A stretch of 64,000 nt of DNA from a virus (taxonomy: Duplodnaviria; Caudoviricetes). The DNA lies in the IMG/VR virus record IMGVR_UViG_3300022848_000005; one strand, written 5' to 3'. The notes beneath the pieces were generated by a model that did no database searches, was not told where the DNA came from, and saw nothing but the letters and a program-made list of their open reading frames with translations. The first letter of the stretch is position 1, and each line of letters starts with the position of its first letter. Below are positions 41,600 through 63,571 of the stretch, piece after piece. Made by a program: the position numbers and the translations under genes.

Positions 41600-42355
41600 A
41601 TGGCCACACTTATAGAAAAACGACAAGAAATAGAAGAGTACATTAACCTAAGACTAGGTGGTCAGATGGTTGATGTTGAGTTAGATAAGGAGCATTATGA
41701 CCTTGCTATTAATAGGTCACTAACGAGATATAGACAGCGAGCTGAAAATTCTCAGGAGGAAAGTCATGCTTTCCTAGCTCTAAACAAAGATCAAAATGAG
41801 TACATACTACCTAGTGAAATACAAGAAGTACGTCAAGTGTTCAGACGTGGTATAGGTAGTACATCAGGCACAACAGCAAGCCAGTTTGAACCGTTCTCTA
41901 GCGGGTACCTTAACACATATATGTTAGTTGCTGGTAGAGTAGGTGGTTTATTAAACTATGAATTGTTTTCACAATATCAAGAATTAGCAATGAAAATGTT
42001 TGGTGGATTTATTAACTTTACATTTGACAGAAGTACAAAAAAACTTACTATTGTGCGTAAGGTCCCACAGGGCGGCGAAGACGTGTTACTTTGGACATAT
42101 AACTTTAAACCAGATATAACTATACTCAATGACCATATGATTTTTCCCTGGGTACAAGATTATTCTTTAGCACTTGCAAAACACATGTTAGGTGAGGCAA
42201 GAGAAAAGTTTGCACAGATTGCTGGACCGCAAGGTGGCACCAGTTTAAACGGTGCAAGTTTAAAGAGCGAAGCACAAATGGAAATGCAAACACTAGAGCT
42301 TGAAATTCAGAACCAGATGACTGGCACTCAGCCAATGTGGTGGGTTACCGGCTAG
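41600..42355 (+). CDS. gp13: Neck protein, gp13-like
   Basis: LRLGGQMVDVELD, Y.LALAKHMLGEAREKF and GPQGGTSLNG motifs. Confidence 0.85.
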   Translation: MATLIEKRQEIEEYINLRLGGQMVDVELDKEHYDLAINRSLTRYRQRAENSQEESHAFLALNKDQNEYILPSEIQEVRQVFRRGIGSTSGTTASQFEPFSSGYLNTYMLVAGRVGGLLNYELFSQYQELAMKMFGGFINFTFDRSTKKLTIVRKVPQGGEDVLLWTYNFKPDITILNDHMIFPWVQDYSLALAKHMLGEAREKFAQIAGPQGGTSLNGASLKSEAQMEMQTLELEIQNQMTGTQPMWWVTG

Positions 42356-42402
42356 CCTTTTGTATACTTTTGTACTATAATAACTAGATGCAAAAATAAA
42401 TT

Positions 42403-42471
42403 ATGCCTAAAATTGCCGACTTAGAAGTTACCCCAAATCCAAACGCTAGGAAATTTGTACTTATATTATGA
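42403..42471 (+). pseudogene. 22-codon duplicate of the nfu 5' end, with its stop overlapping the sufB start (ATGA)
   Basis: [22 protein letters not shown]; 55 of 60 nt identical to 43990-44049. Confidence 0.85.
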
Positions 42472-43904
42472 ATACAGCAATTGATAACATTGTGAATCAG
42501 CCGTACAAGGCTGGATTCCACACCGAAATCGAGACGGATTCAATGGCTCGTGGTTTGAGCGAAGATGTTATTCGAACGATATCGAGCAAGAAGAATGAGC
42601 CAGATTGGTTGTTAGAGTTTCGTCTTAATGCTTACCGTCATTGGTTGACGATGACAGAGCCAAAATGGCCAAACGTGAGATATCCAAAAATTGATTTTCA
42701 GGACATAATTTATTATTCGGCACCGAAGTCTAAGGCGACCAAGAAGTCCATGGATGAGGTCGATCCAGAGTTATTGAAAACTTTTGAGAAGCTTGGTATT
42801 CCTATGAATGAGCGTGCGGCTTTGGCAGGCGTTGCTGTGGATGTTGTTTTTGATAGTGTTTCTGTAACGACCACCTATAAAGAAAAGTTAGCGGAATACG
42901 GGATCATATTTTGCTCGTTCTCGGAGGCGGTCAGAGACCATCCAGATCTGATTAAGAAGTACCTTGGCAGCGTTGTTCCTTATACCGATAATTTTTATTC
43001 TGCATTAAATTCAGCGGTTTTTACGGACGGTTCGTTTTGTTACATCCCCAAAGGTGTGAAGTGTCCGATGGATCTGTCGACTTACTTTCGCATCAATACT
43101 CAGGACTCGGGTCAGTTTGAAAGGACTCTGATTGTCGCAGAAGAGGGCAGTCAGGTGTGTTACCTAGAGGGTTGCACCGCACCTCAATTTGACACGAATC
43201 AATTGCATGCGGCGGTGGTTGAGCTCATTGCTCTTGATGATGCGGATATTAAGTATTCCACTGTGCAAAATTGGTATGCCGGAGATGAAAATGGCGTTGG
43301 TGGTATCTTTAATTTTGTGACTAAGCGAGGATTGTGCAAAGGTAAAAACTCCAAGATATCTTGGACCCAAGTGGAGACTGGATCAGCGGTGACTTGGAAA
43401 TACCCCTCGTGTATTCTTCTTGGCGATAATTCGGTGGGTGAGTTTTACTCCGTAGCGCTTACTAATCACATGCAACAAGCGGACACTGGAACAAAGATGT
43501 TCCATATTGGCAAGAATACCCGCAGCCGCATTATCAGTAAGGGTATTTCAGCGGGAAAATCTAATAATAGTTATCGTGGTTTGGTGAAGGTGTCACCTAA
43601 AGCCGATGGCGCTCGTAACTATTCTCAATGCGACTCTATGTTGATTGGCGATCTTTGTGGTGCCAATACATTCCCTTACATCGAGGTCGCCAACAAGAGC
43701 TCGATCGTAGAGCATGAGGCAAGCACATCAAAAATTGGTGAAGAGCAGATGTTTTATTTTTCGAGTCGAGGTATCGGTTCTGAAGAAGCTGTTTCTATGA
43801 TTATTAATGGATTCGTTAGAGATGTATTTATGCACTTGCCCATGGAGTTCGCGGTCGAGGCAACAAAATTACTCGGCTTAAAACTGGAAGGAAGTGTTGG
43901 ATGA
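42468..43904 (+). CDS. sufB: Fe-S cluster assembly scaffold SufB
   Basis: Full length: [57 protein letters not shown], ending KLEGSVG. Confidence 0.97.
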
Positions 43905-43978
43905 TTATAAAGAATGCAGAAACGATCCTAAGTGTACATAACCTCGTCGCTAGTATTGATGGCACTCAAAAAACTTAA
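43901..43978 (+). pseudogene. sufC: 5' stub of sufC (25 codons)
   Basis: ATGA overlap with the sufB stop; [25 protein letters not shown] resembles SufC N-termini and is truncated before the Walker A motif. Confidence 0.7.
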
Positions 43979-43989
43979 GTAAAAAAATT

Positions 43990-44559
43990 ATGCCTAAAAT
44001 TGCCGACTTAGCAGTTACGCCGAATCCAAACGCTAGGAAATTCGTACTCAAAGAACCTATAACCTATGGTGTGGCCAAGTCATATGAGTCAGCGGAAGAA
44101 GCGGTTGGGGATGAACTTGCGTCTAGTTTGTTTCAAATAGAGAGTGTGGTATCTGTTTTTTATGTCGATAATTGGATTACGGTGACGCAAGACGGCAGTG
44201 CTGATTGGAAAGATTTGATGCGCTCTTTGGCCGAACCAATTCGTTTGGCCCCTGTTGCAACTCAGGTTTCGGAGGAAGCATCGAAAACTGCCACATGGCT
44301 TCAAACGGATGAATCCAGTCTTTCCGAAACGGAACGGGCTCAGCTTGTGCAAATCAATGAATTGCTAGATGACCGTGTGAGGCCATACCTTCAAAGTGAT
44401 GGCGGTGATCTCTATGTTGTAGGCTTAGAGGATAACGTTTTAAGTGTCCATTATCAGGGCGCATGTGGTAGTTGCCCCAGTTCCTTATCTGGAACACTCG
44501 CTGGTATTGCCAGTTTAGTAAGGGAAATCGATCCTAACATCGAAGTTGTAGCGGTATAA
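43990..44559 (+). CDS. Nfu/NifU-like Fe-S carrier (NifU_N scaffold plus NifU C domain)
   Basis: [20 protein letters not shown] and VRPYLQSDGGD..YQGACGSCPSS motifs. Confidence 0.9.
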   Translation: MPKIADLAVTPNPNARKFVLKEPITYGVAKSYESAEEAVGDELASSLFQIESVVSVFYVDNWITVTQDGSADWKDLMRSLAEPIRLAPVATQVSEEASKTATWLQTDESSLSETERAQLVQINELLDDRVRPYLQSDGGDLYVVGLEDNVLSVHYQGACGSCPSSLSGTLAGIASLVREIDPNIEVVAV

Positions 44560-44634
44560 GCTAGAACTGAATGACTTGAGCAACTGGCTAATTTTTCTGT
44601 TTAATTTTATTTCTACTTGTGTTATAATCTATCT

Positions 44635-45258
44635 ATGATTATAGGAATATGTGGGCTGATTGGAACCGGCAAAGACACCGTTGCAGATTACTTGGTAAAT
44701 TTTCATGGTTACAGACGTGATAGTTTTGCTAACCCACTTAAAGATGCTGTTAGTACAATATTTGGTTGGGATAGAGATCTTGTGGAAGGCCGTACAACAA
44801 TGGCTCGCCAATGGCGTGAGCAAGTTGACGAATGGTGGTCGCAAAGACTAGGCATACCCAACTTAACTCCTCGTTATGTCTTACAACAGTGGGGTACCGA
44901 AGTTGTGCGTAAGAGCTTTCACGATGATACCTGGATTGCAAGTTTAGAAAACAAAATACGTAAAAGTAAAGACGACTCTGTTATTACAGATTGTAGGTTT
45001 CCTAACGAGATAAAAATGATTAAAGGTCTGGGCGGCAAAGTTCTCCGTGTTAAACGTGGGGAAGATCCTGTATGGTACAATACCGCAATAGCCGCCAATA
45101 ACGGGGACAAACAAGCAGAGGATCAGATGCACACCCACTTTAAGGTACACATTAGCGAATGGGCGTGGGCAAGTGCAGACTTTAATTATACTGTATTAAA
45201 CAACGGCAGTATAGATGAGCTATATGAAGTACTTAAAAATCTGGTAGTATCTCACTAG
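44635..45258 (+). CDS. gp1: Deoxynucleoside monophosphate kinase, gp1-like
   Basis: MIIGICGLIGTGKDT, SFANPLKD, PRYVLQQWGTEV and VITDCRFPNE motifs. Confidence 0.9.
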   Translation: MIIGICGLIGTGKDTVADYLVNFHGYRRDSFANPLKDAVSTIFGWDRDLVEGRTTMARQWREQVDEWWSQRLGIPNLTPRYVLQQWGTEVVRKSFHDDTWIASLENKIRKSKDDSVITDCRFPNEIKMIKGLGGKVLRVKRGEDPVWYNTAIAANNGDKQAEDQMHTHFKVHISEWAWASADFNYTVLNNGSIDELYEVLKNLVVSH

Positions 45259-55645: not shown

Positions 55646-55837
55646 ATGAAGATATCTGAACTACAAAAATTAGCAGGTATCAGAGAAAAAACATCTTGTA
55701 TGGATATGGAAAACATAAGCCATACCGGTACTGAAAAGGCTAAGATAATGCGTAAGAAAAATATCCAGCCAGGCACACCTGAATGGTTTAAACTTTGGTT
55801 CAGCAGACCATATCTCACAAAAGAAAAGCCTTATTAA
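55646..55837 (+). CDS. Small hypothetical head-associated protein
   Basis: MKISELQKLAGI...IQPGTPEWFKLWFSRPYLT. Confidence 0.6.
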   Translation: MKISELQKLAGIREKTSCMDMENISHTGTEKAKIMRKKNIQPGTPEWFKLWFSRPYLTKEKPY

Positions 55838-56361
55838 GCAACTCGCCTACCAGCACCTAAATACTTTTCCCACTTAGGATCTTTAATTTTAATAGGACTA
55901 TTGCGCCACTTTGATGCCAGTCTCCAGTAGTCTGGTTCGTATGGTTTGTGTATGGGTTTTATTAGTTTGTCTGCTTTAGCATAATTGCATTTTTTACAAC
56001 TAGTAACTACGTTAGTCCATGAAGATTTGCCACCTTTGCTTCTGGGTATAACATGATCGATAGTTAAGTCCTCAAAGTCAAATGTATCCTGGCAGTATTG
56101 GCATTGGAATAAATCACGCAAGTATACGTTAGCTCTACTAAATCTTACATAATGTCTTGGGTTAAAGTATTCTTTGGTAACTGCAACACTAGGTACATTT
56201 AATGTAAGGTTTTCACTGTGTACATGCCAGTCATTATATGTTTCTAACACTTGGATGCGTCCTAAAAACATTAACTTAATAGAGTGTTGCCAGTGTATAA
56301 CTGAGAGAGGAAGTACTGATATTGGATTGTAATCTTTGTTGAGAAGCAAGGTGTGTGACAT
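55834..56361 (-). CDS. HNH endonuclease (McrA-like)
   Basis: RDLFQCQYC, LTIDHVIPRSKGG and WTNVVTSCKKCN motifs. Confidence 0.9.
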   Translation of the reverse strand: MSHTLLLNKDYNPISVLPLSVIHWQHSIKLMFLGRIQVLETYNDWHVHSENLTLNVPSVAVTKEYFNPRHYVRFSRANVYLRDLFQCQYCQDTFDFEDLTIDHVIPRSKGGKSSWTNVVTSCKKCNYAKADKLIKPIHKPYEPDYWRLASKWRNSPIKIKDPKWEKYLGAGRRVA

Positions 56362-56416
56362 AAAAACCCTTTCTAAAAAGTATTTAACACTCCATGGAAC
56401 ACTGGTAAATATTAGT

Positions 56417-57979
56417 ATGTCTAAGTCGCTCGACGGCGTTTTAATTAAAGCCGCACATAAACAAGAAACCTTTACTAAGCCTCAGATAAAAGAACTCATG
56501 ACTTGTATGAATGGCAAAACTGGTTGCGAATATTTTATGAGCAACTACTTTTATATACAGCATCCTACAAGAGGTAAGTTGTTGTACAAACCTTTTGAGT
56601 TTCAAAAGCGCTTAATATCTACCTACAACGATTATAGATTTAGTGTTTCTCTGATGCCAAGACAAACTGGTAAAACAACCACTGCCGCTGGGTACCTGTT
56701 GTGGTATGCAATGTTTGTGCCAGACAGCACAATACTAGTGGCCGCCCACAAGTATGCAGGTGCTCAAGAGATTATGCAACGTATCAGGTATGCGTATGAG
56801 TCTGTACCCAATCATATACGTGCAGGTGTTACCAGTTATAACAAAGGAAGTATTGACTTTGACAACGGGTCACGTATCGTGGCAATGTCTACAACTGAGA
56901 ACACTGGTCGAGGTATGTCTATATCATTATTATACTCAGACGAGTTTGCATTTGTGAGGCCTACTATTGCCCGTGAGTTTTGGACGTCCATATCACCCAC
57001 ACTTAGTACTGGTGGTAAGGCTATTATTACATCAACACCTAACTCAGATGAAGATCAGTTTGCATTTATATGGAAACAAGCAAACAAGAACATTGATGAG
57101 TTTGGTAATGAACAGGAAGTAGGCGTAAACGGTTTTAGAGCATTTAGGTCTGAATGGTGGGAACATCCTGACAGGGATGAGCAGTGGAAACAAGAGGAAA
57201 TAGGGCGTATTGGTGAAGATAGGTTTAGACGAGAACATGGGCTAGAGTTCTTAATCTATGACGAAACTCTTATAGCACCAACTACTCTAATAGAGTTGGA
57301 GTTTAAAGAGCCTGTGTTCAAGCAAGGACAAGTACGCTGGTTTAAACATCCTGAAAAAGACAAAACTTATGTTCTCAGTTTAGATCCTAGTTTGGGAACA
57401 GGTGGCGATTACTCCGCTATACAAATATATGAGTTGCCCACATTAGAACAGGTGGGTGAGTGGCAAAATAACAGAACACCGATCCAACAGCAAGTTAAAC
57501 TACTACAACAGATTACAAGTTTTCTAGCAGAAACAGTTAACAAGAATAACATATACTACAGCATAGAAAACAACTCTATTGGCGAAGCCGCATTAGTAAG
57601 CATTGCCGAAATAGGAGAGGAAAATATTGCAGGAACATTCCTTACTGAGTCCAGATCTCATGGGAACTCTAGTCGATTTAGAAAAGGGTTTAATACTACT
57701 GCACGTAATAAACTAGCCGCATGCGCTAAGTTAAAGAGCCTAATAGAGAGCAAAAAACTAAAAGTACATAGCAAAAATTTAATTAGTGAATTAAAAACAT
57801 TTGTGGCACATGGTGGCAGTTATGCTGCCAAGACTGGTGAAACAGATGACTTAGTAATGAGTTTGGTATTGATAACCCGCATGATGCAGGGATTGCAAAC
57901 ATACGATGCTAGTCTAGACACAGCGTTGAGAGACCATAATGACAGTCTAGAGTTTCCTATGCCCTTTGTGATCTTTTAA
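56417..57979 (+). CDS. gp17: Terminase large subunit
   Basis: PRQTGKTT Walker A, YSDEFAF Walker B, ITSTPN, LDPSLGTGGDYS and DDLVMS motifs; no intein. Confidence 0.95.
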   Translation: MSKSLDGVLIKAAHKQETFTKPQIKELMTCMNGKTGCEYFMSNYFYIQHPTRGKLLYKPFEFQKRLISTYNDYRFSVSLMPRQTGKTTTAAGYLLWYAMFVPDSTILVAAHKYAGAQEIMQRIRYAYESVPNHIRAGVTSYNKGSIDFDNGSRIVAMSTTENTGRGMSISLLYSDEFAFVRPTIAREFWTSISPTLSTGGKAIITSTPNSDEDQFAFIWKQANKNIDEFGNEQEVGVNGFRAFRSEWWEHPDRDEQWKQEEIGRIGEDRFRREHGLEFLIYDETLIAPTTLIELEFKEPVFKQGQVRWFKHPEKDKTYVLSLDPSLGTGGDYSAIQIYELPTLEQVGEWQNNRTPIQQQVKLLQQITSFLAETVNKNNIYYSIENNSIGEAALVSIAEIGEENIAGTFLTESRSHGNSSRFRKGFNTTARNKLAACAKLKSLIESKKLKVHSKNLISELKTFVAHGGSYAAKTGETDDLVMSLVLITRMMQGLQTYDASLDTALRDHNDSLEFPMPFVIF

Positions 57980-62135: not shown

Positions 62136-62637
62136 AGAACTAACGTGCCACAGTATTATGTACATACAGTACGAAGTTATGGAGCATCTTGCCAATTACG
62201 AGCTAGAAGAAGGCTGGAACGATATTGACGAAGCAACTTGTCTACGTAGTTGTCCTAGACTCATGCTATACCTGAAAGAACTTAAACTGGCTCCTAGAGA
62301 TATCGCATGTACATACCTTACTGAACACTTAGACTTGCACGTAGATGCCAAGCCGGTAGTGGCTAAACTTAATATACCAATACAACATTGTGTGGGCAAT
62401 ATAAACTACTGGTATGACGAGGACGTAAGTCACAGAAGAACTAAAAAAGATAAATTCAACAGAAACGTTCCTGACTTAGCAGGATGGGTACCAAAGTCTA
62501 ATATTATAACACATCAATTCTTTACAAAACCAATAGTGTTTAACAGCCAAATACCGCATGGTGTTAAAGTTACATACGGTCCACGTATAGTTTTAAGTAT
62601 AACATTTTTTAATGAGCCGTTAAATGAACTGCATTAG
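62122..62637 (+). CDS. Cupin/2OG-Fe(II) oxygenase-like protein
   Basis: LHVDA..LNIPI..PIVFNSQIPHGV..PRIVLS pattern (HxD...H). Confidence 0.5.
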   Translation: MQAFKELTCHSIMYIQYEVMEHLANYELEEGWNDIDEATCLRSCPRLMLYLKELKLAPRDIACTYLTEHLDLHVDAKPVVAKLNIPIQHCVGNINYWYDEDVSHRRTKKDKFNRNVPDLAGWVPKSNIITHQFFTKPIVFNSQIPHGVKVTYGPRIVLSITFFNEPLNELH

Positions 62638-63571
62638 ATTCAAGCACTTTGCAAGACTTAACCCTGACGGCACAGTAAGCCGATGTGGTCACATGGTAAA
62701 ACCTCCTCGTTTTAATTCATTTAATGACATGAATAACAGTGACTGGAACAATAACTTAAAAGATTGGCCTGTCGAATGTGTTAGATGCAAAGTTAGCGAA
62801 AATCAGGGCAAAGAAAGTGTTAGGCAATTCAGTAACAAACAACATGAAGAACTATCTCAAGCTCATAAAGATTATCTAATCATTGGTGGAGTGTTGGATA
62901 ATATATGTAACTCTGCATGTCAACATTGTAATCCACACTTAAGCACAAAGTTTGGCGCCATTGCTAATAATAAGATAATAGTAGACAACACAGATAAATT
63001 TTACAACTTTCCGCAGGAACGTATTGTTAAGTTAGATATTAATGGTGGAGAGCCCACAGCAAGCCCCAACTACAAAAAATTACTGGAGTATTTGCCTGCT
63101 AACGTGCGTTATGTGAGAATAAACACAAACGGCAGTCTACGTATAGATCCAACGCCTTTGCTTAACCGTGGCATTGATGTTACAATAACTATGAGTTTAG
63201 ATGGCATAGACAAAGTACATGATTACTTACGTTGGCCCGTTGTTTGGAAGACATGGTTAAAACAATTTAACTATTACAACGAATTTAAAAACAAGAACTT
63301 CCATTTAGATGTATGGTCAACTATAAGTGCATTAAACCTTAAAGACTATCCTAACATCAAAAAGTTTACAGAAGATAAGGGTGTTAATTGGGCATGGGCA
63401 TTTTTAGAATCACCAGATGTATTAAGCATTAGACACACAAACTTTTTAACTGAACCTGCTAACGAGTTATTTGATGTGGTGGGGACAGAGCAAGACAACA
63501 GTCAGAAACTAACAGCGTGGTTAAAGTACCAGGATACTATTAGAAAAATCAATTACAAGGACTACTTATGA
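62624..63571 (+). CDS. Radical SAM protein
   Basis: CNSACQHC (CxxxCxxC), GGEP, INTNGS and MSLDG motifs, with an N-terminal Cys-rich SPASM-like segment. Confidence 0.9.
   Translation: MNCIRFKHFARLNPDGTVSRCGHMVKPPRFNSFNDMNNSDWNNNLKDWPVECVRCKVSENQGKESVRQFSNKQHEELSQAHKDYLIIGGVLDNICNSACQHCNPHLSTKFGAIANNKIIVDNTDKFYNFPQERIVKLDINGGEPTASPNYKKLLEYLPANVRYVRINTNGSLRIDPTPLLNRGIDVTITMSLDGIDKVHDYLRWPVVWKTWLKQFNYYNEFKNKNFHLDVWSTISALNLKDYPNIKKFTEDKGVNWAWAFLESPDVLSIRHTNFLTEPANELFDVVGTEQDNSQKLTAWLKYQDTIRKINYKDYL

Follow-up and report, generated by a model that had tools for sequence, protein, structure and literature searches.

Cyanophage psbA encodes D1, a single subunit, resembling the host's own, of a host machine with many subunits, the remainder of which comes from host partners. 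The gene has repeatedly been acquired from hosts and exchanges sequence with the host copies, and D1 itself turns over fast. Genes for iron-sulfur (Fe-S) clusters have been reported from marine viromes, where nifU, sufE and others are counted as viral auxiliary metabolic genes (PMC8940887), and from the 'group C amoC-phages', freshwater phages of 269-285 kb with BJGV01 ammonia oxidisers as hosts, for which passages of the preprint name SufB among the host-like genes (bioRxiv 10.64898/2026.06.18.733297). Here a sufB-nfu cassette is described in the IMG/VR virus record IMGVR_UViG_3300022848_000005 (Duplodnaviria; Caudoviricetes), of which one stretch of 64,000 nucleotides, called the window throughout, was analysed. 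The cassette holds intact genes for SufB, the cluster-building scaffold, and for Nfu, a [4Fe-4S] carrier and, judged from its sequence, it is an auxiliary gene cassette of the phage with a host origin. The reading favoured here, given a probability of about 0.68, is that the host-derived cassette boosts Fe-S supply in a T4-like jumbo phage, a function which we infer.

With the amoC-phages, as described in passages of their preprint, this phage has in common that all are large betaproteobacterial phages of 36-39% GC whose SufB groups with that of the predicted host. It differs in that the nearest host genomes found here are without AmoA, AmoC and RuBisCO, and in that the donor operon and four junctions were resolved; in its main text the preprint makes no mention of Nfu or NifU, and the passages concerned contain neither an operon stub nor a junction anatomy. 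As in the marine viromes, single components of Fe-S assembly occur without the pathway, a pattern that was read there as relief of a limiting host step (PMC8940887). In the viromes the genes were detected in reads or contigs, with neither a donor nor junctions nor selection tests, whereas a linked scaffold-carrier cassette of known origin is at hand here. Its features are the following.

42394..42461, + strand: direct repeat copy 1, host nfu leader (from -9) and nfu codons 1-19
42403..42471, + strand: nfu' leader, a mini open reading frame (ORF) of 22 codons, first 20 residues identical to host Nfu
42468..43904, + strand: sufB, intact, 478 amino acids, PRK11814 equivalog
43901..43978, + strand: stub ORF of 25 codons, sufC codons 1-23 running in frame into the final two codons and stop of sufU
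43961..43970, + strand: deletion junction J3, microhomology between GGCACTCAAA (sufC codons 21-24) and GGAACCCAAA (sufU end)
43981..44048, + strand: direct repeat copy 2, at the beginning of the complete nfu gene
43990..44559, + strand: nfu, intact, 189 amino acids, with the Pfam domains Nfu_N and NifU

The operon from which the cassette derives was found in a scan of metagenome contigs, on a bacterial contig of 61.5 kb and 44.7% GC (L164). Its gene order is Rrf2-csd-sufA-sufB-sufC-sufD-sufS-sufU-nfu-Rieske, with mutS and mfd flanking the operon; csd was called as a cysteine desulfurase and sufU as NifU_N. By blastn, window positions 42467-43970 (sufB) correspond to L164 8000-9503 with 96.9% nucleotide identity and positions 43961-44561 (nfu) to L164 13273-13873 with 95.0%, while the upstream repeat copy corresponds to L164 13293-13360 with 95.6%. 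The encoded proteins share 98% (SufB) and 97% (Nfu) of their amino acids with those of L164. Host homology starts one base 5' of the sufB ATG and stops two bases 3' of the nfu stop.

Between the two genes, 3769 bp of the host operon are absent in the phage, starting at sufC codon 24 and reaching into the final codons of sufU, and the two long blastn segments overlap by 10 nucleotides. The deletion at J3 is in frame: the stub closes with the native SufU terminus (KT-stop), and the native 11-nucleotide spacing from stop to start before nfu was kept. The N-terminal 23 residues of the stub match host SufC (MIINNAETILSV...), with a tblastn identity to sufC of 95.7% over 23 amino acids. Its ATG overlaps the sufB stop (ATGA), and in the same manner the TGA of the nfu' leader overlaps the sufB ATG (ATGA). 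The result is a chain of four ORFs, consisting of nfu' leader, sufB, sufC'::sufU' stub and nfu, with such overlaps at both ends of sufB. The copies of the 68-nucleotide direct repeat are 93% identical, differing at 5 of 68 nucleotides; three differences to the host were counted in copy 1 and four in copy 2, and one derived base (C) is common to both. The Rrf2-regulated promoter region of the host is not carried in the cassette.

An earlier note on this DNA, made by a model from the letters alone, had described a minimal host-derived module that retained only scaffold and carrier, and the match to the L164 operon bears this out. The statement that no intact sufC, sufD or sufS lies beside the two genes also holds within the 64-kb window, where sufC was found as the 23-codon stub only and none of sufA, sufD, sufS and sufU was present. 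The insert has a GC content of 43.5% against 39-40% in the flanks, and its GC content at third codon positions is 45% (sufB) and 38% (nfu) against 27-36% in the neighbouring phage genes, in agreement with the deviating composition and codon usage that had been remarked on.

Both proteins are intact, as the note had read them, according to equivalog scores, domains and motifs. Against the NCBIfam equivalogs, SufB reached 894.7 bits for PRK11814 (cut-off 717) and 647.8 bits for TIGR01980 (cut-off 346.4); it contains the domains SUFBD_core and SufBD_N, and aligns over residues 13-478 with E. coli SufB (5awf_A; 681.8 bits, E 4.2e-204). In E. coli SufB, eight residues are essential in vivo and not replaceable by alanine (PMC5571166), and all eight (R226, N228, C254, Q285, W287, K303, C405 and E434 in E. 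coli numbering) are conserved in the phage protein. By the criterion of gene context, and not of protein family, the partner genes sufC and sufD are not encoded with sufB in the window, where only a sufC stub and no sufD, sufS or sufU is present; the partners would have to come from the host. Nfu scored 70.3 bits on PF08712 (Nfu_N) and 66.3 bits on PF01106 (NifU), the cut-off being 27 for each, and has a CXXC motif (CGSC, residues 159-162) that is invariant across the Nfu alignment. Carriers of the Nfu type bind a comparatively oxygen-stable [4Fe-4S] cluster and deliver it to target proteins (PMC8593673). The degenerate A-type domain PF01521 gave no match in the N-terminus of the phage protein; since Nfu_N is found instead, it cannot strictly be called an NfuA.

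The phage protein groups with three near-identical metagenome proteins at the tip of a SufB tree, and this group nests in a clade of L164 and a protein of a Burkholderiales metagenome-assembled genome (MAG), found on contigs of up to 574 kb. The clade of L004 and L005 is sister to it, and the Nitrosomonadaceae fall outside. The nearest relatives of the protein belong to uncultured small-genome Burkholderiales MAGs (98-99% identical in amino acids), Nitrosomonadaceae being at 79-81%. The accession numbers of Nfu and SufB in the Burkholderiales MAG are five apart, as the operon predicts. L004 and L005, species-level MAGs of uncultured Burkholderiales, show the same operon order, with SufB identities of 94-95% for amino acids and 80% for nucleotides. 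Both species-level host genomes have a small size (1.2 and 1.6 Mb), and in these incomplete MAGs neither AmoA, AmoC and RuBisCO nor HscB was found. An ammonia oxidiser, a candidate that was considered, was rejected as host on the absence of AmoC, AmoA and RuBisCO from these two incomplete genomes; small genomes lacking these proteins and HscB indicate that the host is probably a streamlined heterotroph which relies on SUF alone. The betaproteobacterial, Nitrosomonadales-like host suggested in the note was thus approximately right without being exact, as SufB nests in the Burkholderiales MAG clade. For an uncultured giant phage, near-identity to a bacterial contig provides a firm host link.

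The site of insertion could be defined by comparison with relatives of the phage that lack the cassette. Its features are listed below, with dNMP standing for deoxynucleoside monophosphate.

41600..42355, + strand: neck / head-tail adaptor gene (gp14-like), left border, phrog_211
42376..42381, + strand: TATAAT element upstream of the cassette, conserved with the relatives (TTTATAATAACTAGATG)
42388..42399, + strand: remnant of the original dNMP kinase start (ATG CAA AAA TAA)
44562..44634, + strand: 73 nucleotides carrying TGTTATAAT-N6-ATG, right junction J4, supplying the new kinase start
44635..45258, + strand: dNMP kinase gene with remodelled N-terminus, 207 amino acids (MIIGICG...), right border, PF21448

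The neck gene was assigned to phrog_211, 'head-tail adaptor Ad2' (E 2.9e-31). The position of sufB-nfu between the neck gene and the dNMP kinase gene had been recognised in the note; its gp13 label does not hold, the adaptor being closer to gp14. A relative of the neck protein was present in 80 IMG/VR loci, and sufB or nfu occupied the site in none of them (0/80). In the 13 closest relatives (neck 84-92% and sheath 82-90% identical) the kinase gene starts 17 nucleotides after the neck gene and the site is empty. These empty sites read TATAAT-AACTAG-ATGCAAAAACAAATTATAGG, encoding MQKQIIG, and the window reads TATAAT-AACTAG-ATGCAAAAATAAATTAT, followed by nfu'; the alignment places the insert inside the first codons of the kinase gene. 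The left junction, J1, lies in a microhomology, AAA-N-AAATTAT, the host nfu leader being TAAAAAAATTATGCC, with a match of 7-10 nucleotides between the kinase 5' end and this leader. On the right, the kinase sequence resumes at ATTATAGG (44638) behind the new ATG. The 207-amino-acid form of the kinase was found in three variants, against the 210-amino-acid MQKQIIG form in the empty-site relatives. Nothing similar to the 73-nucleotide J4 segment was detected in the window or in any fetched locus. Its origin from a duplicated-promoter (PeSL-like) cassette was considered and not established, the likeness to the native neck-kinase spacer being ~57% by eye.

The TATAAT in front of sufB-nfu that the note had pointed out is present at 42376-42381 and, from its conservation in the relatives, is the native upstream element of the kinase gene that now stands before the captured cassette, as a putative promoter. 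A placement just 5' of start codons, tried as a general feature of the window, applies to only 5 of its 74 TATAAT sites. No terminator-like site was found before the kinase gene.

In distant relatives, the neck-kinase junction holds other small ORFs (L095:1049-1756, L109:908-2364, L161:936-2089, L131:8765-9154 and L104:8729-9469), which include a recurring family of ~129 amino acids starting with MGNR(I/L)MKI. Because of these ORFs the site can be said to tolerate insertions, and by its gene content it is a hot spot for accessory genes.

The window represents the structural core of the phage, whose genome is ~289 kb, with genes for portal, prohead protease, major capsid protein, baseplate, gp15, neck adaptor, sheath and large terminase. 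The sheath protein (1071 amino acids) is 40-48% identical to the sheaths of the jumbo phages PA5oct, Atu_ph07 and Phosso. An HNH endonuclease gene (55834-56361, - strand) lies directly upstream of, and overlaps, the large terminase gene (56336-57979). The radical-SAM gene to which the earlier note had pointed as a possible client of the cassette is indeed present, and serves here as context only.

62624..63571, + strand: radical-SAM protein, candidate Fe-S client, PF04055, phrog_14086

It scored 30.4 bits on PF04055 (cut-off 29.5) and has a CX3CX2C motif, CNSACQHC at residue 95.

Selection on the two genes was assessed by comparison with L164, which belongs to the host but differs from the exact donor. 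For sufB, 44 nucleotide and 8 amino acid differences were counted (synonymous divergence dS 0.124, omega 0.061), and for nfu 28 and 5 (dS 0.20, omega 0.057). When changes were polarised with L004 and L005, nine nonsynonymous and 17 synonymous changes fell on the branch of the phage (plus donor), which may include changes made before capture; neutrality predicts 78% nonsynonymous changes (P = 2.7e-6). A non-functional or neutrally decaying sufB, which the note had named as the outcome that would speak against its proposal, was not observed: both genes have been under purifying selection with omega of ~0.06, over a span that includes time before capture. Since the 5' copies of nfu differ at 5 of 68 nucleotides and share one derived base, the sequences suggest that an amount of change comparable to that of the branch has accumulated since the rearrangement. 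The composition of the cassette is still host-like, and the changes show no A/T bias. Phage variants with a kinase diverged by 2% still carry an intact nfu, and one Tara contig seems to contain nfu together with the 207-amino-acid kinase.

The differences to L164 are unevenly distributed in sufB. In its first 347 nucleotides (window 42468-42814) a single difference is present, with 13.7 expected (P = 1.7e-5). This near-identity of the 5' part suggests a later exchange of sequence, by gene conversion, between the phage and host copies of sufB.

A profile scan of IMG/VR yielded 83 SufB loci. In ~38 of these sufC adjoins sufB, mostly together with sufD and sufS. At least 33 loci, counted among those with at least 1.5 kb of downstream flank, have a solitary sufB, with no sufC, sufD, sufS, nfu or other suf gene within 6 kb (loci L249-L325; for example L263:5971-7428, L249:5989-7428 and L313:5959-7401). 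These genes are all intact and form at least 13 clusters, which are 60-78% identical to each other. In one case the position is between gp13-like and neck genes, in others beside genes for DnaB helicase, DNA polymerase, clamp loader or SbcC. In L256 (6001-7440), and also in L257 and L324, sufB lies between portal and prohead protease genes; these three are relatives of the present phage, with capsid proteins 77-79% identical. The closest named homologue of this portal-side protein is SufB of the gammaproteobacterium Spiribacter (86-87%), which marks it as a separate capture from another host.

From these data, solitary sufB looks like a widespread and repeatedly acquired phage gene, and its repeated, independent retention is the best indirect evidence that the scaffold alone helps a phage. 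The independent retention of sufB by itself in many uncultured phages points to SufB as the component that it pays to carry. Nfu was found in four IMG/VR loci only, with sufU or sufA as neighbours, and is absent from PHROGs; single-protein scans of IMG/VR with Nfu gave no match. The sufB-nfu pairing was not seen in any other SufB or Nfu locus of IMG/VR.

In nine of the loci with a solitary sufB (L258, L260, L262, L263, L266, L270, L271, L312 and L325), an ATG overlaps the sufB stop (ATGA), like that of a native sufB-sufC joint, and opens the following, unrelated ORF; it may be the trace of a lost sufC start. When sufC stubs were sought 3' of the other solitary sufB genes of phages, no clear example emerged.

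The history and action of the cassette can be pictured as follows. In an infected Burkholderiales bacterium of low GC and with a small genome, the DNA of the phage would have joined the host suf operon by microhomology, with the joint among the opening codons of the phage's dNMP kinase gene, and an in-frame deletion, again by microhomology, would have removed sufC (from codon 24), sufD, sufS and sufU. Ribosomes would start on the nfu' leader and pass to sufB, the stub and then nfu, and SufB and Nfu would be made together with the timing of nucleotide metabolism. The infected cell would thus obtain extra SufB and extra Nfu, and the two would work with the SufC, SufD, SufS and SufU of the host, a cooperation made plausible by their 98% and 97% identity to the host's proteins. 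Fe-S supply would in this way be kept up while host expression fails and the Fe-S enzymes of the phage (radical-SAM) raise demand. The earlier note had proposed a boosting or rewiring of the host SufBC2D complex for radical-SAM clients of the phage. We infer such a boost as well, and the solitary sufB of unrelated phages supports it indirectly; for 'rewiring' there is no specific support.

As a further step, drawn by analogy with D1, SufB might be the rate-limiting or most perishable part of SUF during infection, replaced as D1 is and here translationally coupled to an Nfu that supplies radical-SAM enzymes. A limiting or short-lived SufB would explain phages that carry sufB alone, and if it were the most perishable part, this could be why at least 13 lineages keep it and discard sufC, sufD and sufS. 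We hold this idea tentatively and consider it rather doubtful.

Several points weigh against the proposal that the cassette boosts Fe-S supply. SufB alone, without SufC, has to our knowledge no known activity, and extra SufB may merely titrate SufC and SufD instead of helping. A limiting or labile SufB in bacteria is a conjecture of ours. Omega was calculated between the phage copy and a contig of the host other than the exact donor, so that part of the purifying selection was exerted in bacteria before capture. No -35 hexamer was found as partner for the TATAAT at 42376-42381, and a single radical-SAM gene was verified in the window. The absence of other suf genes refers to the 64-kb window, and such genes may sit elsewhere in the phage genome.

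An assembly chimera, with reads of the host misjoined into a contig of the phage, would account for the higher GC of the insert and for its high similarity to an abundant co-occurring bacterium. The insert is, however, 3-5% different in nucleotides from every cellular copy, and no assembler makes a 68-nucleotide duplication with five mismatches, an in-frame deletion and a remodelled kinase start. Moreover, the exact proteins recur on 12 (SufB), 14 (Nfu), 22 (neck) and 17 (kinase) contigs from JGI, Logan and ENA assemblies, the longest carrying contig being 289,070 bp for each of the four. The chimera, which the note itself had raised as a danger, can be considered practically negligible on these grounds. 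An exact 30-mer across the nfu'/sufB joint had no match in IMG/VR, and from this and the Nfu scans the phage itself seems to be missing from the collection searched. Passenger DNA is a more serious thought: the cassette might have been picked up recently and by accident at a tolerant site, play no role for the phage and be intact only for lack of time. The divergence of only 3-5% from the host, the host-like composition with changes free of A/T bias, the assorted small inserts at the same junction of more distant relatives and the absence of the cassette from all 13 closest relatives would agree with this. It is made unlikely by the nine nonsynonymous against 17 synonymous changes on the phage (plus donor) branch, even if that branch may reach back beyond the capture, and by the 7% divergence of the nfu 5' copies, which places most of the divergence probably after the rearrangement. 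The in-frame deletion with all coupling overlaps kept, the intact nfu in variants with a diverged kinase and the intact solitary sufB of at least 13 phage lineages argue in the same direction. A takeover can also be imagined, in which phage SufB competes for SufC, SufD and the sulfur donor and favours the phage Nfu, and Fe-S clusters are diverted from host proteins to phage enzymes or host assembly is throttled. Freedom from the Rrf2 control of the host would suit such a role. So would the clustering of five of the seven residues that distinguish phage SufB from the host clade within 412-437 (DNA 43701-43778; P = 5e-4), at the start of the C-terminal helical domain, which in E. coli SufB binds SufC (PMC5571166). 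Only N2, M428 and G437 are unique to the phage-type protein, however, the latter two within this stretch, while I413, S432 and L256 are common natural variants; an adaptation of SufC binding, considered for this cluster, was downgraded for that reason, and the cluster may be taken as weak evidence. In Nfu, A8 is a variant specific to the phage. With all catalytic SufB residues intact and a mere five residues between phage and host Nfu, where no private pairing is evident, a takeover appears improbable.

The remaining alternative concerns the history and leaves the function as it is. The phage may have captured nfu first and a sufB...nfu fragment later, which entered by homology in nfu on the right and by an illegitimate joint at nfu codon 20 on the left. 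At J1, the match of 7-10 nucleotides connects the 5' end of the kinase gene with the nfu leader, as expected if nfu came first, sufB would then need just one illegitimate joint, and the dS of nfu (0.20) is somewhat above that of sufB (0.12). Yet this gap in dS is not significant once the near-identical first 347 nucleotides of sufB are set aside, the divergence from the host is not greater in repeat copy 1 than in copy 2 (3 versus 4 differences, with the shared derived C), and no phage with nfu only was found. A two-step history is a real contender to which we give somewhat less than even odds. The capture of sufB...nfu in a single event, followed by the deletion and by a duplication of the nfu start, fits the data as read from the alignments; that the two nfu 5' copies are equally diverged speaks for one donor and for time.

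Among the phage records of GenBank (50,697), no credible solitary sufB was found, and no credible nfu either, where four weak matches of 25-35% identity came from unannotated records. The only plausible sufB, annotated as such, was that of Microcystis phage MaAM05 (MW495066), with 72.7% identity. As a solitary phage gene this candidate was rejected, since it belongs to a bacterial-looking block at the record end, panB-panC-sufB-sufC-sufD-sufS-iscU (L244, MW495066.1 262792-273876). The other GenBank 'phage' SufB matches were dismissed as bacterial-looking or prophage-flank sequence.

Host-like genes of Fe-S assembly in viruses have so far mostly been entries in lists. In this case one full history can be read from the sequence, with the donor operon, four joints, the in-frame loss of four of the six captured genes and leftover stubs that keep translation coupled. 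The wider pattern, with dozens of unrelated phage contigs that have an intact sufB and none of its partners, leads to a testable claim on which step of Fe-S biogenesis limits stressed cells.

Like SufB of the E. coli SufBC2D complex (PDB 5AWF), the phage SufB has all eight essential residues, and its Nfu has a CXXC of the kind that binds a bridging cluster in NfuA. Unlike in E. coli, none of sufC, sufD, sufS and sufE/sufU is encoded by the phage within the window; its SufB lacks the dispensable CxxCxxxC insert of the E. coli protein, and its Nfu carries Nfu_N, as mitochondrial NFU1 does, where NfuA has a degenerate A-type domain. The likeness to cyanophage psbA is an analogy only: in both cases a host-like subunit is encoded, and the first 347 nucleotides of sufB are near-identical to the host's. 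The fast turnover of D1 is known, whereas a counterpart for SufB is conjecture, and the pathway is entirely different. That viruses carry Fe-S genes was already known; what the present locus adds is a resolved capture history, a stub-coupled pairing of scaffold and carrier, and the breadth of solitary sufB among phages.

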